The translations under genes and the position numbers were made by a program. A DNA stretch of 62,156 bases, filler included, from Polymyxa betae A26-41 (lineage: Eukaryota; Protista; Endomyxa: Phytomyxea), in the NCBI GenBank assembly GCA_003693705.1. It is 4 parts of 4 records of this genome, joined end to end, with 100 filler letters (N's around TTAATTAATTAA, not from the genome) between each part and the next. Parts side by side here need not be neighbours in the genome. Positions count along the whole stretch, not along the records: positions 32,063 to 43,218 come from RBZT01000330.1; 3 more parts are not named here. The stretch is one strand, 5' to 3'. The notes under the pieces are model-generated. The model was not told where the DNA came from. It ran no database searches and worked only from the letters and a program-made list of their open reading frames with translations. This document shows, piece after piece, positions 3,001-43,982 of the stretch (position 1 is the first letter of the stretch; each line of letters begins with the position of its first letter).

Positions 3001-6000
3001 TATATGGAAACGGAACAATAAACAAAAGATGCCCAGCAAAATCATTGGAGCCAAGTTCCTACCTCATATGCAAGCTCATCAGGGATGGTGGGACCAGCTG
3101 ATCCAGAAGGGAACTGCCGGAGCGGCGTCTCCCAATCCCACATACGTCGCTCGATCATTTTGCAGAAGGTGAGAAATCTCAGGCAGACATGCGACCAGCC
3201 TCGTTTCATGGTGATCTCATATAAAGCGCGACAAATCCTCCCAGCACTGCATCATAGTCAAAACAAGTCTCGAATGCATTGTCGCACCGAACTAGACCTT
3301 TGGATGATGTAGTTGGTGTCAGAGACCAGCGATGACATTGATGGACGATGTCGAGATATATAAGCCTGTAGAAACATTGTAAGTTGCGGAATCGCTGTTT
3401 AGATCAGATAAAAAATGGAGCAGAGAAAACGTAATCACCCCGAAGCTAAACGGAAAAATCTCGACCTGTAAGAGGACGTTTACTTTATCCTGAGGCGTAT
3501 CGAGATTCTTCACCGGAATCGGGCATGACGAGATGCGAAGCTCCTCAAGTTCATCGATCTCCTCATTGCGGACCTTAACCTGGACGAATTCTATTGATGA
3601 CGCCAATGTTCGAAGAATGACATCATCGTCGCAGACGCTTGGGTTCAGGATTTTGAGATAGACCTCAATTGAGGCATGCGAAATGTAAAAGAACGATGCC
3701 GTACGACCAAGATCGGTGGGCATAAAAACATCGGACTGGGCCGGCACCACCAGCATTCGGCATTGAACTAATCGCCGAACAGCAGAATCAATGAGAGTGC
3801 GACGATGTCCGGCTAAGGTTGGATCTTGGAGCAGCTCGGCGTAGTTGATGCCGTAATGCTGTGGGTTACGTTGCATTCGTATATACAAATATGTGTAACT
3901 GAGCAAGACATAGAGATCAGAAACCAACGAAAAGGTATGAAAGAGAAAAGAAACCCCGATGTGAACGTAATGCAAAGCGTTAAAAAAAATCTTGTAGAGT
4001 AAGAAGCAAGGGAGAACCGAATGATAACCAAAGAAAAGATGAATTGAACAGTCTGGAAAAATGTGGTAGTTTTAGGGCGGACATTTGTCGCATCATGGTC
4101 GAGTCCAGCATCAATAGAAACATTCGGCACGAAGCGAAACGAATGATAGGAAGGTAGAGAATGAAAGAAAGAATTAAACCCCGCCAAGATAGCGAAAAAT
4201 TCTAGCCGAAAGTACAGAAACGAAAGCGCATAATGAGATGCTGACCTAATCCATCGTTGGGCTTCGGTGATATTGGCGACAGTGCCAAGGTTGATCTCGG
4301 CATTGAGATTATCGACCAAGGTTTCATTCAGCTTACTCTCAATCGGCATCGCCTTCACGAACAAGCGCAAATACCGGGGCAGAGCGTCGCCCTGTGTGAT
4401 GATAATGCCTTCACCACTCGTGTCGTACTGTGGCCGACCTGACGAGGTAATAATTATGCATCGAATAATAAGACATTGAAAGGGATAACCAAGAACCAAT
4501 AGTAACAAAAGAAGAAATAAGAAAAGGCTTTGAGAAAATAAGCACGAAGTAAGAGATGAATTAGCCAAGCAACGAATGCAACGAATAATTCAATGATATA
4601 AGAGAAGCTCAACTCTGAACATCGACTCACCAGCACGGCCGAATATCTGCATGACGTCCAGCATAGACAAATCGATATAGCCACCTTGAGCTGCAGAATA
4701 GATCTGCGTGCCTTTAATGATAACGGTGTGGGCAGGCAGGTTGACGCCCCAGGCCAATGTGGCGGTGGTCACCAGGATCCTCAAGACCCCTAGCTCGAAC
4801 ATGTTTTCAACAAGCGTGCGATCATGACGGAACATGCCGGCATTGTGTATCCCAATCCCATAGGCTGACAGATATTTCAAGTCCTGATTGGAACAGCGAG
4901 CAAACTTCAGCTTGGCATCAACGTATTTAGTGTTGCTGAGGGCAGCTTCAATCACGCTCAAGGTATCGTTCTGCTGCGATAGTTCGATCATGGCTTGGGC
5001 TGTTTGAATGGTGTCCTTCCGCGAATGCACGAAAATCATAACCTAGATAGATAGTTGAGGAGAGCGAACACACCAACAGCAATATTAGTTATATACCTGA
5101 TAGCCTTTGATCAGAGCCTCGATCAGCTTTTGATGACAAACCTCATTCAACAGAGCTTGTCGGCGCACCGAGTTCGGATGATTGATACCAATGAATGTTT
5201 GCTGAAGTGGTACTGGCCTATATGTCTGATCGAACGCTAGCAGGCCTAAGCAGATCAGTAAACTGAAACGCAGGTAGACGCTCGAAACGTTTAGGATCAA
5301 AGAAAACGTCTAGGCAAGACATTTACAGCAAGATTATTTCAGAAGCGTATTAGCCCCAACACAGCAAACAATTTAAATATGCCAAAGTGGCGTAGAAATA
5401 GAAAAGGAGCAGTATGTGAAAAGCTGCAAAATAGTGCACCTTTTTCTGGATTAACGCGAAGGAAAGTAGCAACATCGGCGTAATTAGGTAATGTAGCGCT
5501 GAGACCGACAATCCGAATCATTGATTGCGAAGACTCCACCTGACGGACTGTTCGCGCCACAAGAACTTCAATCACTGAGCCTCGAGTATCATGGAGAATG
5601 TGAACCTAAGCGATCTCAAGAGGCTGGATTAGCGTATGATAAAGAATTGCAGACATGAGTATAAAGGGAGAAATAATGACGATACACATGAAAGACACGA
5701 GAATTCCCAAACAATCTTTGTAAATTGAAGGTGAAATCAAGAAACCGAAGCAAGAAAAAAGTGACATTGAGAAATCTTCGATGCAATCTACACCAGAGCG
5801 ATGAGAAACAGTGCGATAATACGCTGAATTCAAAAGCATCAATGCTCAAATGACGGAGAAGCTAAGAGATAATGGCAACCTCGTCAAAGATGAGGAGACG
5901 GACGAGGCTGATGAGATCATTGCTTTTTCTTGTAATGACATCCCATTTCTCAGGCGTGGTTACAATGATGTGTGTCTCTTCGATCTCTCGCTTGCTGAGC

Positions 6001-20143: not shown

Positions 20144-20675
20144 TGTTGTTGATGGTCATGGTCAAGTTGGACCGACCTGTCTCGTTTTGTTTTACTAAAT
20201 ACTGTTCTACTGTGATTTAAGCACGCTGTCTCGTTGTGAGCTGAGTAGCTTTATTATGGCAAAAGGTGCAGGATCAGGATCGGCGGCAAGACGAGGATCT
20301 CGTCAGATCTCGGGACATTCCGTGGCTCAGGCTGAGGCCCAGCCCGCTCCGGAGGCAGTTCCAATCCGTACCACTTCTCAGGTTATGGGCCCAGACGCCA
20401 TTCGTGCGTATACTGGCGAGAAGATAAACGGCAAGAATTGGGGCGCTTTCGAATTTGGGTTCACGACGCACCTGATCGGATATGGACTGCTGGATACACT
20501 GAGTCGTGATGTGCCCGATCTGGCCGCTCAGAACAAGGTGTTTTCAATCCTTGTTGCGGCCCTGAATCGAGCCAGTACACTCTGATGAGTAAGACCAGGA
20601 CTCCGTCGGCTGCGTGGAGTGTTTTGAGGGACTTCCATCGGAAGCAGGGCGGACAGTCAAGGCTGTTACTCACTC
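20144..20675 (+). mobile_element. Ty1/copia 5' fragment: LTR (~20144-20380), PBS and gag
   Basis: TG...CA is followed directly by GGTTATGGGCCCAG, the copia-type internal tRNA-iMet PBS. The gag-like peptide INGKNWGAFEF..TPSAAWSVLRDFH comes from an ORF starting inside the LTR. Confidence 0.8.
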
Positions 20676-21525
20676 CCAAGAGACAGCCTCACCAACCAAT
20701 CGCATGCATCTATGAAGCATGCGATTTGGATTGGGAGGTCGAGTCAATCTTGGAGCACCGTATGTCACCAGCCGGCTTTGAATTCAAGGTCAAATGGCTT
20801 GGTGTGTCTCAAACCGACGCCAGATGGGAACCTGCAGATAATGTTGAAGGCAGCGCCGGGATCGTTGCAGATTATGCCCTGGACTTCCCTGGTATGTACT
20901 CTTGATTGTGTTTTGCTTGTTTTAGAAATAATAATAATATTATTTTGCAGAAATCAAGCCGCTGTTGCCTTGGTTGCCAGCTCAAGTTGAACATCAGGAC
21001 CCGCCTGATGCTCAACCCAATGGCTTCGAAGTGACTTCCGGCAATAATCCGGCAGATTCACATTGGTCATGGTCCAATTGTGGTATCCCCGATCTTGCTT
21101 CTGAATCACAAGGGAATGAAGAAATCAAGGTTTCTGATGTAATGGAGATGCCGGAATCGGACCCAACCCTGTATTACAATACTGGATTCGGTTTGTTCCC
21201 TTTAGTCCATCGTGGAATATTATCTCATCACGTTTAACATAGGTTGCCCTCCTAATATCTAGGACTGTTCTCTCTCGATATCTTCCGCTCAGTTTTCCAA
21301 CCCCGTCCTCTCTCCAAGGTAACTTCCTCAGTTTAGACAGTTTGTTACAATTTGACTGTATTCGATCACCATTGTCTAACGCTTACAGTACATTCCATAT
21401 TTTTTGTTGCTTGTTGTAAAATCAAACCGATTAATGTTTCTATAGGTTACAGGAATCGCAGAGCCTAACACATACGACAATTAGTAAAACCCCTGATCCC
21501 CACCAACGTAGGGTTTCAGAGTCGT

Positions 21526-24337: not shown

Positions 24338-24410
24338 GCTCTGCTAGCTCAGTTGGTAGAGCATTGGTCTAATAAGCCAAAGGTCGTCGGTTCGAGCCCG
24401 GCGCGGAGCA
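24338..24410 (+). tRNA. tRNA-Ile (AAT)
   Basis: Acceptor stem GCTCTGC/GCGGAGC, A-box TAGCTCAGTTGG, anticodon arm ttggt-ctAATaa-gccaa, GGTTCGAGCCC, followed by a poly-T terminator. Confidence 0.95.
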
Positions 24411-25174
24411 AACTTTTTTTGCCAGTGATGGATCTGTAAGCCATTCTGTTTATCATGATCGATTCTGTACCTTAATTCGAAACCAAAAGGGCAAGCGGAA
24501 TGCGACGAAAACTGGATGCATCTCGGCTGCTCCATTTAATCTCAGCTGATTCTAGAATTTGGCCGTCAAGTCGGGTATTGTCTGTCTAAAGCAATTACCA
24601 AACTCGTTCACCTAATAACATCATGTTGGTCTCACTTATACTTATCCAGAGAGTCTCCCAATTGAATTCAGAACGAATTTTTGTCCACAAAGTTGAAATG
24701 CTTCCTTTTTGGCAAAGTTCTGGATGACAGATTGAATCGGTAATCATCAACACGAGTCCACTGGCCCTATCCAGCAGTCGTGTTCGGCGCTACATTCACC
24801 GTTGCTGTTTCCGTAAACCGTTCGTGATTGGTGCCAGCGATATCTTTGTAATCCGTCCGTAAAGATCTGAATCCGTCTGATAGCTGCACCATCAGCACCG
24901 TCCATCTCCAATTCGGTCACGCAACGAACTGGCCCAAGCATTGATGCCGAGGAACATCAGGAAATGATTTCTGTCTGGATGTGAAAAACTGCCTTGAGTC
25001 CCATCATGCTGCTGAATCCGTCCATGAAGCAATCTCCAATGACACTAACGTATCGCCGGTCCGATATTCCGTCCTCCGATCACGTGGGTTGGACCCAGCT
25101 CAAATTATTCTACACAGTTTTGCTGTTAGAAGCATCCCACAACTTCAAAGCGCATTAGGTATGAGGAATAGTTT

Positions 25175-25246
25175 GCCGCTATAGCACAGTGGTAGTGCAC
25201 CCGCTTCGTAAGCGGTAGGTCGCAGGTTCAATCCCTGCTGGCGGCA
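25175..25246 (+). tRNA. tRNA-Thr (CGT)
   Basis: Acceptor stem GCCGCTA/TGGCGGC, TAGCACAGTGG, anticodon loop ttCGTaa, GGTTCAATCCC, T-run downstream. Confidence 0.95.
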
Positions 25247-25678
25247 ATTGTTTTGATTTTGCGGATTTGCGACCACGCAAGCACCTGTACTTGGAGTTTT
25301 CAGATCGTGCGTCCGTGACTTCAATGAATGTGAGCGATTCAGGCCGAGGGGGTGAAAGGTTCAACCTGAGTCCCAAAATCTCGGTTTTTGCTTACATCTC
25401 GTAATCAAATTTTCTGAACATCATACTCTTGTATCTCGATTGCAAGCAAGTAGATCTGTGCAAAATGACTTGATTCAAACCTCACAAACAGACTCGGACT
25501 ATGATCGTTTCCTGCCTTTGCAATTAGTTCACGTCGATCTGCACTCAATACGGTTCCCGGCTACGGTCAGCTGTGATGAAAAATAATCGCTTTTCATGAA
25601 AATTTCATATCTGAAAACACATGCGTGTGACCGATGGTGACGTACCCTCCATAATAATCCCATACTATGGCTCGATTA

Positions 25679-26304: not shown

Positions 26305-26650
26305 TTACAAGTATTTCTGTTGCAGAATCAGTTTGTAACTGTATCCTTCAAAGAGTTTCTCAATGCTCCTAATAATACATCTGTAATCCCGTTCATCTTC
26401 GTTCACATTCAAACTTTTGATCTTATTCATGATTTCATCTTGAAACCCTGAATTCTCTAGATGGTGTCGATAACTATCAAAATCTTGAGCAGAAGGAGCT
26501 TGTGACAACAGCCAATAATCTGTTTCAATATCTCATAACTTGAACTTTAGCGGATTTCGATATGCTGTCATTTCCTTTAATGCAGGCATCAATGAACGAC
26601 TTTGTGCATCAACTATTCTGACACGTTGAATTGTTGAAACTAGTTCGTCA
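26305..26650 (-). pseudogene. C-terminal remnant of a KCTD-like BTB paralog
   Basis: WLLSQAPSAQDFD..GFQDEIMNKI matches the C-termini of the other two copies; the BTB part is absent. Confidence 0.55.
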
Positions 26651-27299
26651 GTTTTGTGCATTAGATGCTCGAATGTTTCGCGCATGCGTAAACAAAATCG
26701 GCATTTATCTTGGATTCGATTGCTCAGTTTTTCTAATGGGCTTTCATCCGGTGTGATCAGTACGTGCTTAGATTAATGGAGGCCTGTTGTGCTTAATTTA
26801 TTCTCTCTGATCGCGTTTGCACAACATATTTACCGATCGTGAATCGATACCTCTTTGGATAATCATTGAATTGACTCGATTTAACATTTGTATCAAGACA
26901 AAACTGTATGAGCTTAGTAAAGGATCGTGTTGGGTTGGGTCCCCAGATTGTGCGGCGTCCTTTGCTAATTCGTCGATAATGTTGCTATCCGGGATTGCCG
27001 GCTTGACAGTATTATTTCGGGCCAGTTTGGCAAGATTCTTTGCACAATCCTTAACAAGTGCGTCCAGTACTCTTTGAATAAACCTGGTTTCCGGGACCAT
27101 ACAAGGTGAGGCTAAGATTGCTGTTTCAAAATGGTAATGAAGGGATTTAGTACTGTCAGTATATAATGTCAGCTGTTGAGTTTAATGCCAATTTTAACTT
27201 AGTCTGTAACCAATATAAAGAATGACGGGTTTTGGAAGTCAACGCAGACGTTTATTCGGTTCAGAGCAATTGCAGATGACGGGTTAATGTAACGTTTGG

Positions 27300-27987: not shown

Positions 27988-28119
27988 TCAAAGACGATAT
28001 AGCTTAATGAAAATACAATCTGTTAGTTCGATGATCGCCTCAAAGTTTAAGGCGCTGAATGTCTTGCGGTGAATTTATGTATGAACGATGTGAGCTCAGT
28101 CGAGAGATTTGTAGATCGA

Positions 28120-28412
28120 CCCTGCTACGAACGCAACCTCCCATGCGCCTTAGTAGAGTCACAACCGGGGTGCAGCCTCCTCGCTATAGTGGAAGCCGTC
28201 TTGATTTGTCCTCTTTCTGCATACTGTACTTCTACGCGCCTCAATAGACAGTAGCTTATTGAATTATCACCAGTTCGCTTGGTGATGGGCTGCTGTCGAC
28301 AGCTCACCACGAGATAATGGACACAGAAGGCTTTCCACTTTAGGGGGGCTGCACCCCGGTTCGGACTCTAAGTCTGGCGCAACCTTATAGGGAGGTTGCG
28401 TTCGTAGCAGGG
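28120..28412. mobile_element. MITE with perfect TIRs (CCCTGCTACGAACGCAACCTCCC), flanked by TCGA
   Basis: 23-bp perfect inverted termini; TCGA on both sides (TSD or TIR extension). Confidence 0.85.
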
Positions 28413-29249
28413 TCGAAAGGAAAATATAAAAAACAGGATGAAATATTATGACATCCGATTGAATATAGAGCCGATGAGAATTCTATGGTGGTCGGAGAAC
28501 CAGTCATTAACCGAGAGCTGTAATGTCGGAGAGACTACTCGAACTTGAGACCAATCAGAGCGGCGTGTATTGGATTGGATTGGATTCTACTAGTTTGTTG
28601 ATGGTTCAGGTCGATCTGCACTCAATACGAATCCCACTTGATTGTCCGGGCTACTATCAGCTGTGAGAAAGCGATCGCTTTCCATAGGGATTCCATATCT
28701 GAAAAACACATGCGTGTGACCGATGGTGAAGCACCCTCCCTAATAATCTCATACTATATGTCTCTATCGCTATACAATGAATGACTTCAATGTATCATCG
28801 GTTTTAGGTTTCATGAATCCCTTTCCGCAACAGCTGTTAGACGTCATGTGGAATATTAAACGAAAAACAGCTGATAACAGAACAATATAACGGTTCTGAG
28901 ATTGGATTAATGATCGAGTAGGCTAACTCTCGGATTATGAAAAAAGATTTCACAACTTGACACTGTTCTTGATAAAGAGCATGCTTGAACATACCTGGTT
29001 TGGGGACAGGACTAGGTGAGGCTAAGATTGCTGCGTCAAGATGGCCAGGAAGGACTAGGTGAGGTTAAGATTGCTGCGTCAAGATGGCCAGGAAGGAAAT
29101 TTGTATTATCCTGTCAGTATATCTTGTGATGCGTTTGATGCTGCTTTTCACTTAGTCTGTGACCAATACAATAGAATGATGATGTTTATTGTTCGGCTCA
29201 GAGCAATTGCAGATACCGTAAAGGGCCAATGTTACGCAGTAACATTTGG

Positions 29250-29862: not shown

Positions 29863-30056
29863 CAGCGACAATATAGCTTAATAAAAGTACAATTACGATG
29901 TCGCCTTAAAGTTTGAGGTGAATGCGCTGCTGCAAATTTATGGATTCTGACGAGTGAATATCGAACCGATGAGAAATCTGTGGTGGTCCGGAGATCCAAT
30001 TATCTGTAATGCAGGTGAGACTACTCGAATATGAGATCTATTCAGAGCGGCGTGTA

Positions 30057-30430
30057 TTGAATTGGATTCTACTAGATTGTTGATGGCTGTCAATAGAAGG
30101 CTCTTTATCCAAACCGCAAGGCCGGTCATACTGAATCATCGCCTTAAATCAACCAGGATTCCAACTTCCATCTTCGCAGCTATGTATAAATTCAACCATT
30201 GTTGTTCGTCTATATCTTGGTGTGCCGAATTGGATGGACCAAAGAGAGGATCGACGAGGTAGGATAGGAACCCGCCCAATACAACAAAGTAGACATTATG
30301 TACTCTAACTCATCTATTACTCCCCTATTAAGTTTCCAGCTTCTATCTAGATCATTGTATATAGTATCCGTTGTCATATATGCAGGAGAGGAACTTTGCC
30401 ATACGAAATTCTCTCGAAGAAACATCAAGC
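30057..30430 (-). mobile_element. 5'-truncated LINE 3' end (third, divergent copy)
   Basis: ORF end MAKFLSCIYDNGYYIQ* is homologous to MAKLLRKAAKNGCDI*. Shares GATAGAAGCTGGA after the stop and has a degenerate CCAAT tail. Confidence 0.55.
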
Positions 30431-31341
30431 TTAGTCAATTTGAAGACTACCCTAACTAGGCTCTTGTCCTAGAAAGCAAAGTCGAGGATATTGAAGAACG
30501 ATTAAACTGCAATAACATTCTTCTCAATGGAGCCCGAACAGGACGCTGTCGGGCCAGAACACATTTGAACATTATAAAAATTGAATGGGAATTTACATGT
30601 CGAGATTGTGTGCGATATTGAGAAACTGTAGAATATCAACTAATACAAAAAGAACACGAATCAGCTAAAGCAAGTTTGTGACAAATATAAGGAATTAGAA
30701 ATCAGCAGCTTCGATGAAGCACTTTATTACGAACAGTGAATGCATGCAATTAAGATTCTTTTCGAGCTTTTTAGCATCATTCTGTGTGAAGAAACAAATT
30801 TCCTCTTCACCAAATGCTGCTGCTTTTTTGCATGGGTTTCCCGGCTGTAAACAATCTTTTTTCTGTGTGGAACTTTATGAAATCCAATTCGATTTCATTG
30901 TTATTGCTATTGGAGCTAATTTTTCGGCGATGTCTTTACCAACTGCATGTGTATATTTCTATTGCAAGGAAGGGTGACGAGTCGCTGAATGCGTCACAGT
31001 GAATCGATGACTGGATGGATGTTCCGTTCGGCAAGCTCTAGCGGACAGACTGTATCAAGACCGGTCTGTATTGCTATAATCTCTGATTCGTAGCTAGATA
31101 CAGCGTTCATGAGGCTATTTTGATCGAGCGTTTAGATATCGGATCGTAATCTTCAATGTTGGAGATATGTACCATACGCCTGTCACCTGTGAGAACGGTG
31201 CTTGTGGAACTTTCATTTACTGAGGCCCTCGAGGGTCATTGAATTTATAGATTCCTGTGAATGGATTCTAGAATCGAATTCTTTTGCTATCGTTTTTTCA
31301 ATTGCATATCGAAAAGGCGTCCGACTGTCTACGTTGCAATG

Positions 31342-31962
31342 TGGATTGGATTGGATTGGATTGGATTGTACTAGCTATTGTGCCTTTCGGCAAAGTGGGC
31401 GGCACTTTAACCCTACGGTAGTGCGGGGCACAGACCCGAAAGTCCGTGGCTCTCCTACTAAATAAAAATTCGGAGGTCTACACCCTTGAGAGTAAATAGC
31501 GAATTTCAGCCGAACGGAGGATTTAGAGACCTATTATTGAAGGGTAGAGACCTGTTGGCCCAACCCTACAGGGAGTTGAACCCTGTACTCAAACATTGAC
31601 TCGATCTCATGCTGATCTTCCAGCTTCTATCACACGCTGTATATTATATTGGACATCCATGTTTGTATGCTTTCTGTAACATCTGTCTCATGAGTTTGGG
31701 CTGTTGCCAAAGGGCTGTACTAAAGTTAGTTATCCTCTGGGAACTATATTTTGCGCCTATGGCGTAATAATGCTGTCTCGAAATATGAACATTTCAGGAG
31801 GAGATGCTCCAGTGTCTCATTATATTGATTACAATATCGACATGCACTGTTACCTTGCCCTTCGGCTTTTTTCATGGATAAGGCACAATGGGTAAGAATT
31901 TTGTTTTGAAACAGGGAGAATCTCGACATTGCGGATAATAAAGGGATCTGGGTTGTATGTTC
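31342..31962 (-). mobile_element. Non-LTR retrotransposon (LINE) 3' end with CCHC zinc knuckle and (CCAAT)n tail; runs into a gap
   Basis: CRYCNQYNETLEHLLLKC (zf-RVT-like), ORF end KAYKHGCPI*, about five TTGGA repeats on the + strand. Confidence 0.8.
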
Positions 31963-32062: not shown

Positions 32063-34621
32063 AACGCATGAACCGTACCCTAGTTGAAAGGGCCCGATCA
32101 ATGATGCTTCACGCCGGACTCCCGAACAGATATTGGGGACACGCAATGGCCACGGCGGCACACATTACAAATCGGCTCCCGTCTTCGGCAAACAAAGCGC
32201 GCACACCGTACGAGTTATTCTTCGGCACTCAGCCGAGCTTATCTCATCTTCGTATATTCGGATGTCGAGCCTTCGCTCATGTTCCCGATCAGAAACGAAG
32301 AAAGTTCGACGCCAAAGCAACCACCTGCACATTTCTCGGTTATCCTTCTAATCAAAAAGGATATATCGTGCAAGAGGATTGCAGTGGCAGAATCTTCACT
32401 TCGAGAGACGTCACTTTCGACGAATCACTATTTCCTCACAATCACGTCTCCACTTTCAATATGGACAATTCAATCTACGACTCACCTGTTGACGAGACAC
32501 CCCTCGGACTTCGCAACACCGAATCTTCACCTGATTCCGTTATGATTCCGGCAGTTGATGAATTATCTGAGGATGACGATGTTACGTTACTGACCGATAC
32601 AAGTAACATTATCGGTGAATCTGATGTAACATTACAAGAAATCGACGACGTCATTCCTCCCAATGATGCGATCGCAACAAGCGACCAGCAAACTGAACCC
32701 GCAGAGTCATTAGAGATCAGCAATGAACAAAACTCATCAACTCCATCTGACCAAGTCTCAAATCGGACTTCGACTAGAGTCCGAGCACGGCCACCTCGCT
32801 TTCAGGAGATCCAAGAGCGTGAACATATGGAACGAATGTTGAAGAGTCATCGCCGCCATCATGTGAACGCCGTTTTGGAACCTGGCTCATACAATGAGGC
32901 AACGTCAGGGAATGATAACGAACAGTGGAGATTGGCTATGGAAAACGAATACAAGTCTTTGATAGAAAACAAGACTTGGATCCTATCCGAATTGCCGCCT
33001 GGACGTAAACCTATTAAATCAAAATGGGTTTTTAAAGCGAAACTGGATGACAATGGTGACGTCGAAAGATACAAAGCTCGCCTTGTGGCTCAAGGGTTTA
33101 GCCAAAGATTTGGTGTCGATTATGACGACACGTTCTCACCAGTTGCGACAATGACAACATTTCGGATTCTGATCGGTCTGATGGCCAAACACTGGTGCGT
33201 GCATCAACTGGATGTTGATACGGCCTATCTAAACGCCGACATCGATACTGAGCTTTATATCACACAACCAGAAGCGTTCGAAATACAGAGCCTGCGAGAG
33301 CGGCCTCTTGTTTGCAAATTACAAAAAGCGATTTACGGATTAAAGCAGGCCGGCTTGGCCTGGTATAACCACCTGACTGCTCTTCTCTCTAATTTGGGTT
33401 TTCACAAGTCTGTCCACGACCCATGCCTATTCATCAGTGACTCCGATACCAACTCTATCAGGCTGATAGCGACCTATGTGGACGATATAATCATCGCATC
33501 AAAATCCAAAGAAAATGTCACGAAATTCGAGACTGATATCGCTCGTTCGCTGAAGGTCAAGCTGCTTGGGGAGGCCAAACGAATCTTAGGCTGGCAAATC
33601 AGCTATGACCACGTCAGCAGCACAGTGACCGTCACACAACAAGCTTATAGAGAGAGTCTTGGCAGCTTTTGGGATGTTAGATTGCAATCCAGCTCCAACG
33701 CCTTCGTTGAAAAGCCAACGACCCCAAGATTCTGGCGATTTGACAGACACTTCGGCCACGGACTTCCCTTACCGTCAAGCTATCGGAAGCCTCATGTATA
33801 TATCTAACAGCACGCGGCCCGATGTCGCGCAGTCTGTCCACCACGCGGCACGCTATGTTAACAACCCCACGCAATGGGACGTTACTCAAGTCAAGAGAAT
33901 CCAGTCTCCACTAATCGCTGTATAATATTTCGCGACTCAAAAACGCATTCTCTATGCGGTTTTACGGATTCTGATTACGCCAGCAGCCTCATTGACCCCA
34001 GATCAACTTCTGGCTATATCTTCTTTGCAAATGGACCAATATGCTGGTCATCAAGACAACAAAGGGTAACTGCATTGTCTACAACGGAGGCTGAGTGCAA
34101 TGCACTTTGCGAAGCTGCAAAGGAGGTGGTCTGGTTATCAAATTTATTGCATGACATGACTTTGAAGAAACCTGAAGAAGCCGTCGAGATCTTCGAAGAC
34201 AATACAGGATGTATTGCACTTGTTCAAGGCAAACGAACGACATCGCGCACCAGACATGTCGCAGTACGAATTAACTTCATCCGGGATCTGATCAAGGCCA
34301 ATGTAATCAAAGTTTTACGTTGCTCGACTGACGCCATGGTTGCCGACCCGCTTACAAAACCACTGGGGACCATCGAGTTCAATCGCAAGATTGCGCTCTT
34401 GATGAACGAAACGAAAGGTTCTCCGGCAAGGGAGAGTGTTGAGCTGCATAATCTCACGTGACCTTCCGGTGAGACTGGCAGATCTGTACCTGCGAACCGA
34501 TCGGGGGCGTACTGGCCCCCGAGCCCCCCCTGTGACCACTTTGACCTTTATATCCTACTAAACCATTTCATTCTGCTACTAATCTCGTTAGCCTCGCATC
34601 GCTTTAGCTCCCAAGCGAACA
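32063..34621 (+). mobile_element. Ty1/copia retrotransposon 3' half: integrase C-terminus, RT, RNase H, PPT and 3' LTR (34437-34621); frameshifted
   Basis: ERMNRTLVERARSM, LRIFGCRAF, FLGY, YKARLVAQGF, QLDVDTAYLN, AIYGLKQAG, YVDDII, FTDSDYA, TTEAE, ADPLTK in INT-RT-RH order. caagggagag|TGTT...AACA. Frameshifts at ~33650 and ~33905. Confidence 0.95.
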
Positions 34622-34812
34622 AAACGGACGACAGAACTCAGGTTCTCTGGATTCTATTTCAAAGTTTATTACTGTGGCAACTGTTTGAGCGATAACCAGT
34701 TCTGCAGGACGTGTCTTGAAGATCGTGAGAGAGAATAGCATTCTACTAAAGCAGACTTATATCCTTGGTCAATTGTTTTTTATTTAAACCCTTCAAGAAG
34801 TTCCGGTAAGTT

Positions 34813-35665
34813 TGGGGCTCAAATGCTTAAGAGTGAATAATTTCCACTGTTACAATTCTCGCAGTTTAGGGGCTCAAATGCTTAAGATTGAATAATATTC
34901 ACTCTTACAAGTCTCGCAGTTTAGGGGCTCAAATGCTTAAGAGTGAATAATAATCACTCTTACAAGTCTCGCAGTTTAGGGGCTCAAATGCTTAATAATA
35001 TTCACTCTTACAAGTCTCGCAGTTTAGGGGCTCAAATGTGTAAGAGTGAATAATATTCAATATTCACTCTTACAAGGCTCGCAGTTTTGGGGCTCAATTT
35101 CTTAAGAGTGAATAAATCTGATGACGCATGTCGTTTTTGTTCAACTGAGAGCGAAACGCTTGAGCACCTACTAATCCACTGCCCTAAACTACAACAGAAA
35201 CTAGGCAAATTCCGAAGCCAATACAACCAGGCCCCCAAACTCAATTTCAACGACACATTATGGAAACATAGCAATAATATGGCAAAACTGCTACGAAAAG
35301 CTGCGAAGAATGGCTGCGATATATAGCCGCGATGTTCGAGAAAGCTGGGATACCAGCAGGGGATAAAGACAGCCTCTTGAGGGTTCAGGGTTCAACTCCC
35401 TGTAGGATTGGGCCAACCGGTGGCTGCCTTCACTGTCAATATCTCTAAGTCCTCTGTAGGGGTGAACTACGATATTATCAAATGGGCTGAATTATCTCTG
35501 AAATATTTAAGTAAGAGAACCTGGACTTATGTTCAGGCTCCGCACTAGGGTAACTGTGCCGCCTACCCCACCGAAAGGTGCGAACAAATAGAGCAATCCA
35601 ATCCAATCCATCCAAGAGTGAATAATATTCACTCTTACAAGGTTCGCTGTTTTTGGGTCTCCAAT
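34813..35665. repeat. Palindromic 55-bp minisatellite (~6 units) split by a LINE insertion
   Basis: Unit GGGGCTCAAATGCTTAAGAGTGAATAATATTCACTCTTACAAGTCTCGCAGTTTA, head-to-tail without spacers, containing an 11-bp inverted repeat. Confidence 0.9.
35116..35613 (+). mobile_element. 5'-truncated LINE with CCHC knuckle, structured 3' UTR, (CCAAT)n tail and 12-bp TSD
   Basis: CRFCSTESETLEHLLIHC; tail caatccaatccaatcc; TSD AAGAGTGAATAA at 35104-35115 and 35614-35625. Confidence 0.88.
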
Positions 35666-36216: not shown

Positions 36217-37004
36217 TCAATCTGCTATCCGCTCCATTCGGAATGGAGTGAGTTTTCGAATTAAAGGGAGAGTGTCTGAGAAGTATATATTAGCAGCCAT
36301 ATTACATGATCGATGACCTGGGCTTTTCCATTTCGGATCAGAGACTGCCGAATGGACAATATTTTTACAGCCATTGCATGGAGCGCTTCGATACAGAATA
36401 CTCAAACGTAAAAGATATAATTTCCAAAGGCGATTTCCCTCCATCATTCTAAAAACAGTCAAAATCTCCAACAATCAAACACTCGGTTACTTACATTCTA
36501 TTGGTCTGCAAATTCGGATCCTTTATAGCCCAGGCTGCTAAACGGACACATAAAGCTTCGTCCAATCGGTGATTGAATACAATCTCGAGCAGTTCATAAC
36601 TAAGAGGAAACGATGAAGCTAAATGGCGACAAAGAGCTCGAAGACCATTGCAGATATATCGGTCGCTGATATACAGCATAGTATCGAGATCTGTCGTGTT
36701 TAATGGACGACTGACCGTCAGATAAATCCAATCGAGGAAAAATAGCGAATCGATCAGGCTTTTCTTCTTCAACTAGTACTTTACCAGTCGCGAGATTGTC
36801 TTTTCTGCTCTCCATCCAGCAAGATCCAGGCTGGAACATAATCTTAAAGAACTCTGAATGCATCGACAGCATGAACTGATGAACTTTGAATGTAGCTGGT
36901 GGATCAGAGCTATCCGAATCTTTCACTTCAATGATAACATCACCATTCTCGTACCAATGCGGTCTTGCTGAAGCTTCTGCCTTATCAACATCACAATCTG
37001 CCAT
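36217..37004 (-). pseudogene. BTB/POZ protein with C-terminal Cys motif (paralog 1, frameshifted)
   Basis: WYENGDVIIEV..FKVHQFMLSMHSEFFKIMF; frameshift at ~36740; LDWIY..ISDRYIC; second exon CNGC..SDPKW. Confidence 0.85.
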
Positions 37005-37157
37005 AGTAAACAGTTCGCTTTGCAATACGACAAGCTAGAATCGGAGGATGATCTTTCTTCACAACTTCCGACCTCCGACCATCAGTAATTCATTGGTTCT
37101 CATAATCAGAATTCTCTCTCTCAACCTGCTGTAGTAGCTTATATAACTTTCTAAAAA

Positions 37158-37951
37158 ATGTCTGAAAAAGATTCTAACTGTGATCCTAAACATGGCAAAT
37201 ATTGGCATGAAGATGGTGATGTGATTCTGGAAGTTCACAGCTTTGACCAAGAGTGTAAAAGTGAGCTGTTTCGAGTGCATAAACCCTATCTGTCGCTGCA
37301 TTCAGAATTCTTCAAGAATATGTTCAAAGATGGGACGAACTGGGTCGAGAACCATCTAGATGGAGATGGCCTCCAAAGAGTCGTCATCAGAGATGAAAAC
37401 CTGGATAGATTCCGTCTCTTTCTGGACTGGATTTACGAGGGCCAGGGTCGGGATTTTGATGTCAAGATTCTCGAACAGATTTTGACTATCAGCGATCGAT
37501 ATCTTTGCGCTGGTTTCCGAGAGACTTGTCGCAAATTAACCCGGGTTCTTCCTAAAAATTTCGAGCTTCTTTGCATTGCCTTCGAGTTTCGTCTGGATGA
37601 GGCTTTATGCTGTCAACTTGCCTCCTGGGGCATACATCGATCTTCTCTGGTTCCAAGGATGATGTAAGCAGATATAATCCCCCAATCAAATGATTGTAGT
37701 GAAGCTTTGACAGAATGAGGAGATTCCGTAGTCGCTGGGCTCTCAATATCATGCAGCTGTCTGCTCTCTATTACCGCGAAGATTGTAGTATCTGTAGGGC
37801 AAAAATTGCTTCAACAGTGTCTGATCCAAACAGCAATTGGGATTCTAAAATATTGAAGGATTACGAATGCTCAAAGTGCTATCAAATCTGGGCATCCAAA
37901 GATGCACTCAAAACTCTAACTCCCTTCAAGTTCGATCTCATCTCTGATTGA
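37158..37951 (+). CDS. BTB/POZ protein with C-terminal CxxC..CxxC (paralog 2, two exons)
   Basis: WHEDGDVILEV..FRVHKPYLSLHSEFFKNMF..FLDWIY..SDRYLC; GT-AG intron at ~37665-37713; CSIC..SDP..W..CSKC. Confidence 0.88.
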
Positions 37952-38198
37952 TACTTTCAATAGATAAAACGCATGCACCAATCTGTGTCCATCGCGTTTG
38001 TGCTTGTATGGCATCGAACATCGGACCTGATATGAATTTGAGTAGATTTTTGAATCACAGAATTGCATTCCGATGGCCGAAGAGCCATAAAGGCAGATAT
38101 ATCGGCCATTCCAGCTGCTGAGAGCTCATAGCCGTTTTGAATCGCTTTCCTGGTAAACCTCTTTCAGAAGATAGACTGATAGCGACCGTTGCTCTGTA

Positions 38199-38964
38199 AT
38201 GTCTATAACACAGCCACTTGGACCTCTCCAACATTGGCATGAAAACGGCGATGTTATACTGGAAGTTCACTTCTCGGATCCAGAGGGCGGAATCGACCAG
38301 TTTCGTCTTCATAAATCACTTCTCTCACAGCATTCTCTATTCTTCAACAGCATGTTCAAAGATGGTGGTCGCTGGGCAGAGAGCAATTCTGATGACAAAG
38401 ATGGCTGTCCGATTGTTATCATTAAAGACGAGAGTCTGGACCGATTCCGTCTCTTCTTGGACTGGATTTATGAGCCCCAAGGTCGCCCCCTTAATCTGAG
38501 CTCTTTGGCTGAGATGTTGATCATAAGCGATCGGTATCTGTGTTCGGGATATCGCGAAACTTGTCGCAATTTGGCTCGATTACTCCCGAACAGTTTCGAG
38601 CTTCTTCGACTTGTATTCGAGTATCGACTTGACAGGGCTTTATGCTGTAGACTCATTGCCTGGGCCATAAAGAGACCTGAACTGAAACTGATTCTTTTGT
38701 AAGCGCCCATTGAAGCTGTAGACAATTATTCTGAGCATTTTAAATAGAAAAATGGAAAAGCGACTCTGGATGATCTATATATATCATCTGCTAACAATCT
38801 ATCAAACAACTCCGTGCTCTAATTGCAAGGAAACTTTTGTCAGAAAAATATCTGATCCCGATTGGGACGGGAGTTTTACTAATTTCTGCCAAAGTTGTTT
38901 TCTACAGATGGGTCCTGCTAAAGAGGAGCTCAAAATGTTATTTCCATTCAACTGGAATCAATAA
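38199..38964 (+). CDS. BTB/POZ protein with C-terminal CxxC..CxxC (paralog 3, two exons)
   Basis: WHENGDVILEV..FRLHKSLLSQHSLFFNSMF; intron at ~38700-38747; CSNC..SDPDW..CQSC. Confidence 0.88.
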
Positions 38965-39329
38965 ACTGAATAATGCTACTTAATGCCATCTCGAGCCAGC
39001 CTTCAAATCTTCAACTCAGTGAACAATATCAATTGTAAACTCAGCCATGTTGAAGCTGAAATTTGCTCTTTTAAGACTGCCTGATTCGGAGCATTCCATT
39101 CCGAGGCAATGGACAACTAACCCAGAATCGTCCGTCGTTGAACTTTCTGCTATTGATAAATCGATTGATGAAAAGGCTGCATAACTTGGGCCAGCTCGGA
39201 ATGAATGATGGTGATGGTACATTGGAAGTTTAAAGTTCTGTTTTAGAGATTCGCGTTCATAAATCATATCTGCTGCTGCACACACAGTCCTTTATAAAGA
39301 ATATAAAAGAATGGATCGATTTGTTTCGA

Positions 39330-39530
39330 AAACGAAACTGAAACTGATAGACTTCAAGGAAATGGCATTCAGACGGTCGTCGTCAACAAAGATGAGAATT
39401 TGATCCATTCCTTCTCCTTCTAGACAGGATGTATGAAGAATGAAATTTCGATCTGAAAAGCCTTCAACATATTCTGCATCTCAGCGATCGATATATGAGT
39501 GTGGGATTTCGTCAAACTTTCACTAGCTTG
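39330..39530 (+). pseudogene. BTB paralog remnant
   Basis: aatggcattcagacggtcgtcgtcaacaaagatgagaatttgat..ttcctagacaggatgtatgaa..agcgatcgatat is homologous to the neighbouring paralogs. Confidence 0.55.
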
Positions 39531-39760
39531 GTCGTTTTTTTTAAAACGATGTATCTTCAAAACACCTTTTTCCGGCATTTCAAAGAGAATATTACTCCGT
39601 ATTCGCTCTTATTTCATCAAAAACAACTTCATTGCTCCAGTTGAAGTATCAACAAAGGGGGTATTGTTCCGTTTCCGGATTCTCATGTTCTTTTTATTGA
39701 AATTCGCTTCTTTGGTGTCCCATTTTTATCCGCTATAATATCATAGCCATAATCTTGCCA

Positions 39761-40538
39761 TCATGAATAAGAAACGCTGGACAGTTGCAAAGGAAATAAC
39801 ACCTTGAGAGCATCTCTGGCATCAAGGAAATGAGAATCCAAGGAAAGGCGACAATCGGGGCAGATTTCGCGACGGTTGAAAGATCCATTCCAGGTGAGGT
39901 CAGAGACCTTTTTAAGAAAACAGGTTTTGCAACCTGTACATGTTTTTGGTTGATAAATAAATATCAATCGGTAGATATAGAGCATCCATAGACGATCACT
40001 TTTCATCTGTCTAGTAAAAAAGTCACGACAGAGGTCAAAGAAATTGTGTTTAAGCTTTGCTTACAGCAACGCTACATTCAAATCAGATTGTTTGAGGGCC
40101 CAACAAGCAACTTTACAGCATAACAATTTATCAAACCGATATTGGAATGCAATGCGAAGGAGTTTGAAACTATATGGAAGAAGCAGGGATAAGTTCCGGC
40201 AAGTTGATTATCAAAATCTGCTCAAGAATGTCCTCATTGAATTTTCGACCCTCTTGCTCATAGATCCAGTCGAGAAAGATTCCAAATCGTGTCAGATTTT
40301 CATCTTTGATAAGGACCTTCTGGAGTCCTGTGTCAGGATCTGGATGGTTTTCCGCCCAATCCGATTCTTTCTCGAACACGTTCTCAAAAAACTTTGAATG
40401 CAGTGAGAGAAGGGCCTTATGAGCACGAAACGTTAAAGGAATGCAGATTTGGTCCGAGCTGTGAACTTCCAATATCACATCCCCATCTTCATTCCAATAT
40501 GTGGCATCATTCTTTTGCCGGTATTTGGTATCTGACAT
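39761..40538 (-). pseudogene. BTB/POZ paralog with an internal deletion
   Basis: WNEDGDVILEV..FRAHKALLSLHSKFFENVF..FLDWIY; SDRYLC segment missing; CTGC..SDLTW..CPDC. Confidence 0.85.
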
Positions 40539-41444
40539 GCTGGATGGAAGATGAGAAACAGAAAATCAGAAGCGAATTTGAGCCAGAATCAGATACTCAT
40601 ATGAATAACACCGTATAATTCATGACAAAGGAATGGCCAAATGGATTCAGCATGCTGGACGCATCACGATTAAACCCTTTCTGTTCTTCACTGAATGCCA
40701 CAATCACTTTAGTTAGGAATTGTGTTTCTCAGATTTCAAGATGGACGACCTAAATCTCTGCTGTTTTGTTCTGTTCGTGAGAGACAATTTGTAACATGCC
40801 TTTGTGCGTCCGGGAGAGAGATTGTGATCGGAACGGAACTGCTTCAAATGGAGTATTATCGATGCAGTTAGCAACTGGAATGTCAGGCAAGAGCAGAATG
40901 GCGTCGTCAGGGTTTAGGGTTGACTCAGCTGTGGGCTGCTTCCGGAGAGATGAGATCATGATGAACTGCGGTCACTTAAAAGGCGCTTTTTCGGAGTTCC
41001 ATGTTCTGACAAAATCAAGGAACCATGTTATCGATTCAGAGTGAAATTGTCTAAAAATAGCTTCCCCAAATTGCCGGGACTGTGTGAATGAATTACAGGA
41101 TTTTCCCGATCTGCCTTCATTACGAAGCACTTGACTGTCCATTATGCTTTGTAAAATCTCATTTGGAACGCACATTGTAAAGCGGTACGAAGCTCTGTCA
41201 TTGCGGGGCGTTTTAATTGCGATAATAGTCTGTAGTTTTTGTTGGGTTAGGGTTTGCCAGTTTGGTCGGTAAAGCATCTGGAGTGAAATCCAGAAAATCG
41301 GTCCTTACACTGTTCTTCAAAAGCTGGACCCTCGTCAGGAAAGACAGAATTGGAAATGACCCTGTGAAGACATAGCGAGACATAATGAACATCACAATCA
41401 TCATACTGTGTCATGACAAATATCAACTTTATTGCTTGAACCAA

Positions 41445-42231
41445 TCAATATGAGATTTGACGCATTGTGAAAGGAAATAAAGCTTTCAACGCATCTGTGG
41501 CATCTGTGAACGGAATCAAGAAATGCCGACTTTCGCGACAAGCGTCACGTTCAACTGTCCCATCCCAGGTAGGGTCAGACACCTTTACTGTGAAATAACG
41601 TTTGCAAGTATCACACGACCGCGATTCGAGAACAGCCAGCAATCTGTAAATATAAAGTTTCCAGCAACGATTCCCTTTCATCATGCTAGAGACAATGGTC
41701 ACGGATTAGATAGAAAATATTGTGCTGAAGTTGCATACATCAATGATCGATTGAAGTTAGGTTGCTGTATGGCCCAAGAAGCAAATCTGCAGCAAAGAGC
41801 TTCGTCCAGACGAAACTCAAAACAAAGCTCGAGCAATTTCAAACTATCAGGAAGGTTTCGAGCAGCATTTCTGCAAGTTTCGCGAAGCCCTGAACAAAGA
41901 TATCGATCACTGATAATCAGTATATTTTCCAAATAAAGTCGCGACCATGATCTTCATAAATCCAGTCTAGAAAACAACGGAATCTGTCCAAATTCTCGTC
42001 TTTGATGATGACATTCTGGAAGCCATTTGCTTGGAGATCAGCTGGATGATTTTCAGCCCAGATTGACCCGCTTTTGAACAGATTCTTGAAAAATTGTGAA
42101 TGTATCGACAGCATTGCTTTATGGACAAGAAACTGTTGTTGAGATTCGCCTTTATCATCAGAGCTGTGAACTTCCAATATAACATCATCTTCATGCCAAT
42201 GTGGTCTACATATAGGTGTTTCATCAGTCAT
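41445..42231 (-). pseudogene. BTB/POZ paralog, frameshifted
   Basis: WHEDDVILEV..FLVHKAMLSIHSQFFKNLF..FLDWIY; frameshift at ~41935; SDRYLC; CDTC..SDPTW. Confidence 0.85.
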
Positions 42232-42779
42232 TTTGAGTCAGTGGTTGCTCACACTCGATCCAGAAATAGTCTTATTATGTAAGTTCAGAATACAGAGAGA
42301 ATACATCCAACAATGCAGAGTGATTCATCACATTTCTTGAATAGACGATTCTGTTCAACTCTCTATGTGGTTCATGATGCCACATGAATGAATCTTTCGG
42401 CCTGAAATTCACTGCGTAAATCTGAATCACGGATTTTTTTAGCGTCCATCTTTACGAATTGGAAACGTGTTCAATATGCTCTAGACCCAGTTTCCAATCT
42501 AAAAAGTGGGCTGAATTATATAATATTTACATCATTATATTTATAAAAAGGCACAGCAGCAGCTGTTTGACAACAGCAAGCCTTTAAAATACGTAATTGA
42601 GCTTAAACACATACGTAAAGTCTTCAAACTGTCCGTGAGTCGCCGATAGTTTGAGAAAACTAGCGGCAAAATTTTGCGCGGACTTGCGGACTTTAAAATG
42701 GTTGGTCGAACAGTTTTGGGGCCTGAAAAAGATCGGCGAAACAGTTTGGGGGCAGGAACTATACGAAAAACCAGCTGAG

Positions 42780-43318: not shown

Positions 43319-43982
43319 TTCTCAGTCAAAAATGGCTTGATTGTGCTGGAATGGCGACGAATCTCACCTGCTTTAAATTTGTCATGCAATGTGCTTTTAG
43401 GAATACCCAGCTCGGCTGCCAGATCCCTAAAGTTTTGTCGCGAATTTAGCGGGACATTTTTGACTGCCTCCAGATCAAGCATTTTGGACTTGCGGCCACA
43501 TTTTCCCTTACGCCTTGAAGATACCACAGCGCAGGGCGACCCATCTGAGAGTGAACGTTGTCCCTGCTGCCAGATTCGACTCACAGTTTTTGTATGAACA
43601 GAGAATTTTTTGGCAATATCTCCAATTGCGCCTTTTTTGAGTTTTCCATCGTTAATACTGCAATAACAACTGTTCATACATTCCTCGACGTTGCTGGTCG
43701 GTATTAGGTTTTTGGGGACTTTCCCCCGATTCGAGGATGGTCGGAGCAGGTCCTGGCATCTTCAATTCACGGGGCCGGTGATTACAAAACAGGAAAGAAA
43801 AACGACGAAGTTCGAGGAGCAATATCTCAGCGGCCAAGGCTCGGTTGAAGCTGAAAATTTTTGCACCAGATAGCCCGTGCCGAGCGCTTTAATTTGCGCG
43901 CCATGGAGAAAAGATCATGCAAAAATTGACGTTAATCCCGGGATTTGTTTTCTACCGGACATATATTTCCGGACAAAGGGAG
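43319..43982 (-). mobile_element. Plant/oomycete-type mariner 5' part with TIR and transposase N-terminus
   Basis: TA|CTCCCTTTGTCCGGAAATATATGTCC TIR on the minus strand; GKLKKGAI..AKKF.V..KTVSRIW..RKGKCGRK..LAAELGIPKSTLH..IRRHSSTIKPFLTE. Confidence 0.85.

Follow-up and report, generated by a model that had tools for sequence, protein, structure and literature searches.

A structured RNA with tRNA-like parts in the 3' UTR of Polymyxa betae LINEs and a possible docking site for the repeat tail

Many LINEs end in short tandem repeats instead of poly(A), and how the 3' end of their RNA arises and is presented is poorly known. This question is raised by two retrotransposon copies in a stretch of DNA from Polymyxa betae A26-41 (62,156 nucleotides, filler included; hereafter the window), whose 3' untranslated regions (UTRs) carry the same ordered helices upstream of a (CCAAT)n tail. 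A preliminary description of the window had named an undescribed ribozyme, a tRNA mimic and an internal Pol III unit as candidate roles for this RNA.

Anatomy and family of the elements

Copies A and B are 5'-truncated non-LTR retrotransposons, probably of the APE type. Copy A (35116-35613, plus strand) consists of an ORF end, a UTR and a tail. Its 5'-truncated ORF end (35116-35326, plus strand, stop codon at 35324-35326) encodes a CX2CX8HX4C zinc finger and is followed by a UTR of about 270 nt and by the (CCAAT)n tail (35594-35613, plus strand), which ends in ATCC. The element is flanked by a 12-bp target-site duplication, the left member of which lies at 35104-35115 (plus strand) and the right member, directly behind the tail, at 35614-35625. 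The insertion site is a 55-bp tandem array (34809-35115 and 35614-35660) with an internal palindrome, which is split by the insertion. Copy B lies on the minus strand (about 31850-31342) and comprises a frameshifted zinc-finger ORF end, a UTR (31643-31369) and a tail of 5.4 units. A third copy, C (30050-30405, minus strand), which was found by nhmmer (E 6.2e-5), is a decayed 3' end from a LINE family that is less closely related and has the same type of tail. Structural hallmarks of APE-type LINEs are present, namely 5' truncation, a target-site duplication around A and a repeat tail in A, B, and C. The signal AATAAA is absent from the UTRs of A and B as read from the sequence.

Within A and B, the finger is the only ORF domain. 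The zinc-finger end of copy B matches Pfam zf-RVT with an E-value of 4.3e-5, and that of copy A scores 19.8 bits (E 0.0013), below the cut-off of 27.5. The protein end of copy A is 85% identical to the protein P0001, which passes the zf-RVT cut-off. P0001 in turn is 46% identical to P0002, a protein with RVT_1, a weak RNase_H and a weak zf-RVT match, and the cluster of P0002 contains endonuclease (Exo_endo_phos_2), reverse transcriptase (RT), RNase H, and finger domains. We take this domain order (APE-RT-RNase H-zinc finger) to fit the I-group LINEs, that is I, Ingi, Tad1, R1, and Loa. The closest Atlas clusters are RT plus RNase H proteins from Ascomycota and Arthropoda, and the PDB yielded only distant R2 and L1 matches.

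The elements belong to a multi-copy family, as 117, 101, 28, and 10 public contigs in four runs match copy A. Contigs extend the ORF upstream of the 5' end of copy A (loose end at 35115). Contig depth on copy A, which is not to be equated with copy number, peaks over the T-arm block and over helix P8 plus tail (see below). Motif scans returned no further DNA copy in viral contigs and none in genome contigs, and the eight loci found in metagenome contigs were all tRNA genes and no LINE copy; protein-led scans with P0002 and P0001 likewise gave no confirmed further copy. Among about 6 in 100 reads of each of two raw RNA runs, none matched the 3' domain of copy B, a sample that does not bear on expression either way. 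One contig contains P8 with no tail behind it (loose end at 31380), and in another the ORF end and the T-arm adjoin in opposite orientation (35127/35387), as expected of a 5'-inverted copy.

The surroundings of the copies are rich in other repeats. Copy B is nested in an older P0002-type LINE (30861-31961, minus; 30406-30736, plus; 30050-30405, minus), the RNase H-to-finger segment of which is inverted on the opposite strand before the 3' end resumes. This arrangement resembles the outcome of twin priming or of a later inversion. The tail of copy C and its flank are duplicated (28566-28600 and 30050-30085, both minus). A further worn LINE piece, reaching from the RNase H end to the finger (26649-27064, minus), lies inside locally duplicated BTB/KCTD-like genes, and 36603-42237 contains a cluster of five or more BTB-domain genes, which are related to each other and lie in either orientation. 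Between B and A lies a fragment of a Copia-type LTR retrotransposon with RVT_2 and SH3_retrovirus domains (32068-34461, plus). Other elements are a 301-bp MITE-like element bounded by perfect terminal inverted repeats of 27 bp, inside which lies a further inverted pair (28116-28416), a Gag-like ORF with a chromodomain ORF behind it, which together probably represent a worn element of the chromovirus type (20199-20902, plus), and an ORF with DUF7769 and a helix-turn-helix that resembles the start of a DNA transposase (43321-43761, minus). The window also encodes a spliced ASCC3/Slh1-type helicase (1527-5042, minus), which is 55-57% identical to its best matches; in a weak tree, it sits on a long branch and falls outside fungi, plants, and animals.

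Conservation and shared helices of the UTR

The preliminary description had claimed that clearly divergent LINEs keep the same ordered hairpins in this UTR, and its six motifs and the tail were all found again in both copies. Copies A and B are saturated at third codon positions: 25 of 59 residues, 17 of 59 third codon positions and one of eight fourfold sites are identical. By contrast, 175 of 262 aligned UTR columns are identical, or 169 of 263 with stiffer gaps (64-67%), compared to 47% and 42% for shuffled UTRs on the two alignments. UTR identity exceeds that of third codon positions with a Fisher p of 1.3e-7, and the comparison with silent sites, which had been proposed as a check, therefore comes out far in favor of the UTR. 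Conservation is arranged in blocks: the stretch from the T-arm to GCCA is identical at 34 of 36 positions, the two linkers at 6 of 20 and 9 of 26. The linkers are thus near saturation, whereas the motifs are 75-94% identical. The UTR is under purifying selection.

Eight helices with 40 pairs are shared by the two full copies compared (A and B, n=2), on which the helices were also picked by inspection. Of these pairs, 28 are unchanged, five carry one-sided and six double changes, and one is broken in copy A, so that 39 of 40 hold in both; the broken pair is restored in most of the contig depth. Consensus folding with RNAalifold was better than for conservation-preserving column shuffles on both alignments, with z-scores of -4.56 (0 of 100 shuffles as good) and -3.67 (1 of 100). 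When only double changes within local hairpins were counted, 6 of 400 shuffles scored at least as high as the real sequences on one alignment, and 50 of 400 did so on the other; taken alone, this count is significant on the former and not on the latter. Folded singly, neither copy surpassed its shuffles (z -1.10 and -1.31). UTR identity, pair tally, and consensus folding together support the earlier suggestion of a multi-domain RNA under structural selection.

These data also bear on the possibility that the UTR is a captured piece of a tRNA or SINE, or a recently swapped 3' end, that drifts without function. P1 indeed lies at about the distance of a D-arm upstream of the T-arm, and the weak mascRNA scores described below stem from the T-arm. 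A recent swap fails as an explanation because the linkers are near saturation while the block from the T-arm to GCCA is nearly invariant; in addition, six double changes stand against one broken pair, and worn copy C, which folds worse than shuffles (z +1.61), has lost the fold. A functionless relic is thus regarded as very unlikely.

The 5' part of the UTR is formed by P1 and P2. P1 (35344-35357; B 31624-31611) had been seen before as a shorter stem; the hairpin is present, but has 5 bp and a 4-nt loop, which reads GAAA in loose ends of two runs. Four of its pairs are the same in A and B and one has a one-sided change, and its pairing probability is 1.0 in A and 0.75 in B. P2 is a 6-bp long-range helix (35360-65/35440-45; B 31608-03/31531-26) that closes the 5' domain with one double and two one-sided changes, and it is present in both single-copy MFE folds of this domain as well as in the consensus fold. 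A P2-like hairpin at 35358-78 was rejected because it occurs in A only.

The 3' part contains P5, P6, P7, and P8, all on the plus strand in copy A like the helices described above. P5 (35496-35517) is a 4-bp helix (35496-99/35514-17) with one double change between A and B, which closes GAA ... AGTA, presumably bulged-G or loop E-like words. Among the matches listed, the changes 35499 T>C and 35514 A>G share a contig with the loop change at 35505 in X3 and X10. P2 and P5 covary and had both been missed in the preliminary description, and the proposed separate hairpin TTGGGCCAAC proved not to be a hairpin of its own. P6 (35520-35537; B 31448-31429) is a 7-bp hairpin with two double and two one-sided changes, and many B-like relatives close a UUCG loop with C-G (change at 31441, eight contigs, 1417/3008 of the depth). 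P8 (35569-35580; B 31392-31381) is a 4-bp hairpin with a C-GAAA-G loop and two double changes, which bears out the compensatory changes that had been reported around a GNRA tetraloop. Single contigs break pairs of P7, and one contig has a different P6, which may represent decay after insertion. A candidate alternative long-range helix is 35409-13/35561-65, and an H-type pseudoknot between the P7 loop and 35561-64 was rejected since its third loop would have 1 nt.

An invariant CTAAR right after P2 (35442-35449) resembles one strand of the 11-nt GAAA receptor. This receptor consists of a C2-G10 pair, U3.A8, an A4-A5 platform, G6.U7, and a bulged residue 9 (PMC10243134). CTAAR at 35445-49 fits; the partner 35512-16 supplies all core residues but clashes with P2 and P5, and the partner 35357-61 agrees with P2 but has at position 7 a C that is occupied by P1.

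Such words have also been considered as parts of an undescribed self-cleaving ribozyme, in which the strand complementary to the tail (see below) would hold the tail and cutting would take place at or near it unaided. The size of the UTR, a probable pseudoknot and the tertiary-type words (T-loop, GNRA, GAA/AGTA, and CTAAR) would suit a compact RNA of this kind. No Rfam ribozyme family matched at E-values up to 10, and neither a hammerhead core nor the HDV L3 word occurs on either strand, in agreement with the earlier view that neither fits. An HDV reading of P7/P8 was rejected since GG before P8 and a P1 partner in B are lacking, and likenesses to group II domain V, TPP, FMN, cobalamin, Alu-domain, and twister-sister RNAs were rejected for want of Rfam support. 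Ribozymes are carried by several LINE clades, but those described in the source sit at the 5' ends (PMC5786205). A ribozyme is accordingly considered unlikely.

T-arm, tail-complementary strand and G-CCA

P3 (35384-35404, plus; B 31587-31567) is a T-arm with the loop TTCAACT. The preliminary description had recognized its likeness to a tRNA T-arm and the 7-nt loop correctly, and had given a stem of 5 bp; this holds for A, but the stem has 7 bp in B and in most of the contig depth (among the matches listed, 35385 T>A accounts for 5443/6341 in X1). The 17-mer of the T-arm occurs twice in the window at up to three mismatches, with 0.10 occurrences expected, and a strict T-arm descriptor matches only A, B, and a tRNA-Thr gene in the window. 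All eight metagenome matches of a 21-mer made up of the T-arm and the next four bases lie inside tRNA genes (six Glu and two Asp). Over the whole window, ARAGORN reports two tRNAs only, both elsewhere, and there is no Rfam tRNA match to the UTR. These genes are tRNA-Ile(AAT) at 24338-24410 and tRNA-Thr(CGT) at 25174-25247 (both plus), the latter of which shares the D-stem of P7 and most of the T-arm of P3. Neither the cloverleaf order of a tRNA nor an upstream 5' strand of an acceptor stem was found in copies A and B.

A T-loop can also serve as a B-box, and the loop of P3 fits the B-box consensus. On this basis, the UTR had been suggested to contain an internal Pol III unit that spawns SINE-like transcripts. 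The best upstream A-box match has three mismatches in A and two in B, compared to one and none in the two tRNA genes of the window. Moreover, five consecutive T lie downstream of the B-box and before the tail in B as well as in several relatives, conservation of a 7-bp stem is not expected of a box that acts at the DNA level, and contig depth is without a step at the would-be start. The suggestion is thus not borne out, and a Pol III unit is held to be extremely unlikely.

The T-arm is directly followed by the guide strand GGATTGG (35405-35411, plus; GGGTTGG at 31566-31560 in B), which is the reverse complement of the tail repeat CCAATCC and would represent the 3' strand of an acceptor stem. 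The single difference between A and B within this strand faces a U in the tail, so that an A-U or a G-U pair would result. It is the only aligned 7-bp complement of the tail in the UTR and arises in 185 of 20,000 column shuffles; among 204 pentamer repeat classes, an aligned complement exists for only three, one of which is that of the real tail. The predicted duplex of guide and tail has -12.1 kcal/mol in A and -11.5 kcal/mol in B, and two internal alternatives reach -6.5/-5.9 and -7.8/-10.7 kcal/mol. A telomerase-like use of the guide as template for the tail was rejected because B has GGGTTGG, yet a CCAAT tail.

The guide is followed by G-CCA (35412-35415, plus), which has the layout of a discriminator plus CCA, and the combination of guide and NCCA arises in two of 20,000 column shuffles. 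The order of T-stem, 7-nt guide, G, and CCA matches tRNA positions 66-72, 73, and 74-76. The GCC of G-CCA can pair with GGT at 35419-21, and the resulting 3-bp hairpin has a probability of 0.95 in B and 0.01 in A. In copy C, the T-arm is worn, and ATTGGG plus C is kept 12 nt after the loop; in A and B, the distance from T-loop to GCCA is 14 nt. The three bases after the tail of copy C lengthen its complement to the guide region of C to 8 bp, either by chance or because these bases belong to the element.

P7 (35542-35559, plus; B 31424-31402) is a D-arm-like hairpin with the stem GCAC/GTGC and a loop that contains AGGGT(A/T)A. Its stem is identical to the D-arm stem of the tRNA-Thr of the window and its loop bears GG. 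A D-arm descriptor, which was built after seeing P7, is matched in 29 of 20,000 shuffles and by 8 of 50 real tRNAs. In tRNAs, the D-loop residues G18 and G19 form pairs with T-loop positions 55 and 56 (PMC10424219). Among the roles proposed before, that of a tRNA mimic for 3' processing or RT loading is the one to which guide plus G-CCA and the D-arm-like P7 lend support at the level of sequence.

Docking of the tail and the RNA 3' end

From these elements, we suggest with a probability of about one in two that the UTR mimics a tRNA with its parts rearranged, and that the tail, docked as the 5' strand of the acceptor, thereby sets the RNA 3' end for reverse transcription. The (CCAAU)n tail would pair with the strand after the T-arm and replace the 5' acceptor strand, forming a pseudoknot across P2. 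The GG of P7 may dock on the T-loop to build an elbow, with P1, P2, P5, P6, and P8 as a putative scaffold, and the docked tail would hold the RNA 3' end in a fixed place for reverse transcription. Docking is supported by the tail complement at the same place in A and B and by the ATTGGG-C kept in the distant copy C. Several observations speak against it. Nested folding assigns the guide:tail helix a probability of 0.0, and forcing it costs 3.1 kcal/mol in A and 9.6 kcal/mol in B, partly because it crosses P2, which cannot be scored together with it. B favors the local hairpin that buries the GCC of GCCA (0.95), and the ensemble of A favors the helix 35404-09/35448-53 (0.82), at the expense of the T-stem (0.02). 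Both copies retain this rival helix, in which two changes are one-sided, and the guide strand may in fact pair here. Guide and tail contribute no covariation since both are nearly invariant, and the full copies number two.

The UTR likely works like the 3' UTR of stringent-type LINEs, the hallmark of which, a conserved structure with compensatory changes upstream of the tail, is present in the two copies. The UTRs of R2, SART1, UnaL2, the I element and the monocot L1 hairpin also have a compensated structure just upstream of the repeat tail (PMC3747384), and those of R2 (Bm3, 248 nt; Gf3, 292 nt) are similar in length to the UTR studied here (PMC11601368). They too are likely read at the start of reverse transcription. 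R2 differs from the APE-RT-RNase H-zinc finger type of the present family. It is possible, at clearly less than even odds, that the UTR is just an ordinary recognition UTR of this type. ORF2p would then bind a compact RNA of several helices, the T-loop would do no more than help this RNA to fold, and the tail complement would be due to chance or belong to an internal helix. Stringent LINEs depend on their 3' UTR, and its stem-loops carry compensatory changes (PMC3747384), and R2 UTRs of 210-292 nt form a pseudoknot-hinge-stem that is read by the protein (PMC11601368). Furthermore, the guide strand has internal partners that are kept in A and B, and a 7-bp tail complement occurs anywhere in A in 215 of 3,000 dinucleotide shuffles. 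What such an ordinary UTR leaves unexplained is a complement right after a tRNA-exact T-arm, then G-CCA, persisting in C, as well as the D-arm-like hairpin. A tRNA-exact T-arm, a G-CCA or a tail-complementary guide is not described for stringent LINE UTRs in the available excerpts (PMC3747384, PMC11601368).

If the tail docks as in the proposed tRNA mimic, its end could be set in two ways, which are considered about equally probable. Host RNase P may measure 12 bp from the T-loop and cut the read-through RNA within the docked repeat, in which case the internal CCA would protect the guide against tRNase Z; alternatively, docking may only protect the tail and offer it to the RT. The host enzyme is a candidate for such a cut because a T-arm plus a target-complementary strand is the composition of an RNase P guide. 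External guide sequences (EGSs) of RNase P also combine a T-loop and stem with a target-complementary strand and look like the top half of a tRNA, but these are engineered, act in trans and form 12 bp, whereas the guide predicted here would be natural, act in cis from upstream of its target and form 14 bp (PMC11143913). The layout of such guides and substrates (T-loop, 7-nt target complement, NCCA) is present in A and B, and a stack of acceptor and T-stem of 12 bp is not found, as it has 14 bp in both copies. Eukaryotic RNase P measures the length of acceptor plus T-stem and requires a break at their junction; for PRORP3, two extra base pairs move the cut 2 nt into the stem, and CCA is ignored (PMC4797305). 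CCA after the discriminator inhibits tRNase Z (PMC3161902). A LINE-borne RNase P guide, in which the cut gives read-through RNA a precise, poly(A)-free 3' end for target-primed reverse transcription and CCA blocks tRNase Z, is put forward tentatively and is on balance doubtful.

With 14 nt between loop and GCCA, the retained RNA would end in AUCC. Four of the five tail ends from single loci fit this prediction, loose ends mixing two to eight contigs being left out of the count: A and B, both of which are ambiguous since the flank starts with A, and two contigs, one in X10 and one seen in X1 and X3. The nonfitting end is a contig with CAATC. For copy C with its 12 nt, an end in CAAT is predicted and CAAT is seen, which represents one event. 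The phase of the tail ends may equally result from microhomology with the primer. The upstream product of RNase P cleavage has a 3' hydroxyl, and LINEs such as the I factor start copying within the repeats of read-through RNA, for which no cut is needed.

Among known tRNA-like RNAs, mascRNA is released by an RNase P cut. Like the element described here, mascRNA and menRNA of MALAT1 and NEAT1 (RF01684) are tRNA-like elements associated with a long RNA at its 3' end (PMC10424219). Copies A and B reach 19.3 and 16.1 bits with this family, against a cut-off of 42.5 bits, and the acceptor pairs are broken; beyond this sub-threshold echo, the UTR has no match in Rfam, so that the search for an already described family, named as a check before, gave none. 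In contrast to mascRNA, which lies downstream of the cut and is released, the present element lies upstream, stays in every copy and has no local acceptor stem. The tRNA-like structures of viruses have a pseudoknotted acceptor arm. They share tRNA mimicry in the 3' UTR of an RNA without poly(A) signal with the present element (PMC10424219, PMC8127992), but their CCA is the aminoacylated 3' end of the RNA, whereas the CCA found here lies about 200 nt inside. In the literature searched (titles and starts of abstracts, outside subscription journals and Repbase), no tRNA-like or RNase P-processed 3' end of a LINE was found.

Since the UTR carries the complement of its own tail in a tRNA-shaped frame, the question of how a LINE with a repeat tail obtains its RNA 3' end becomes directly testable. 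If RNase P is not involved, the UTR would still be an unusually elaborate and undescribed recognition RNA of an RNase H-bearing LINE. If RNase P does cut, it would be a natural, cis-acting guide sequence and a use of tRNA mimicry without precedent in the literature searched, and the element would add to the tRNA-like structures of eukaryotes, of which very few are listed so far (PMC10424219).
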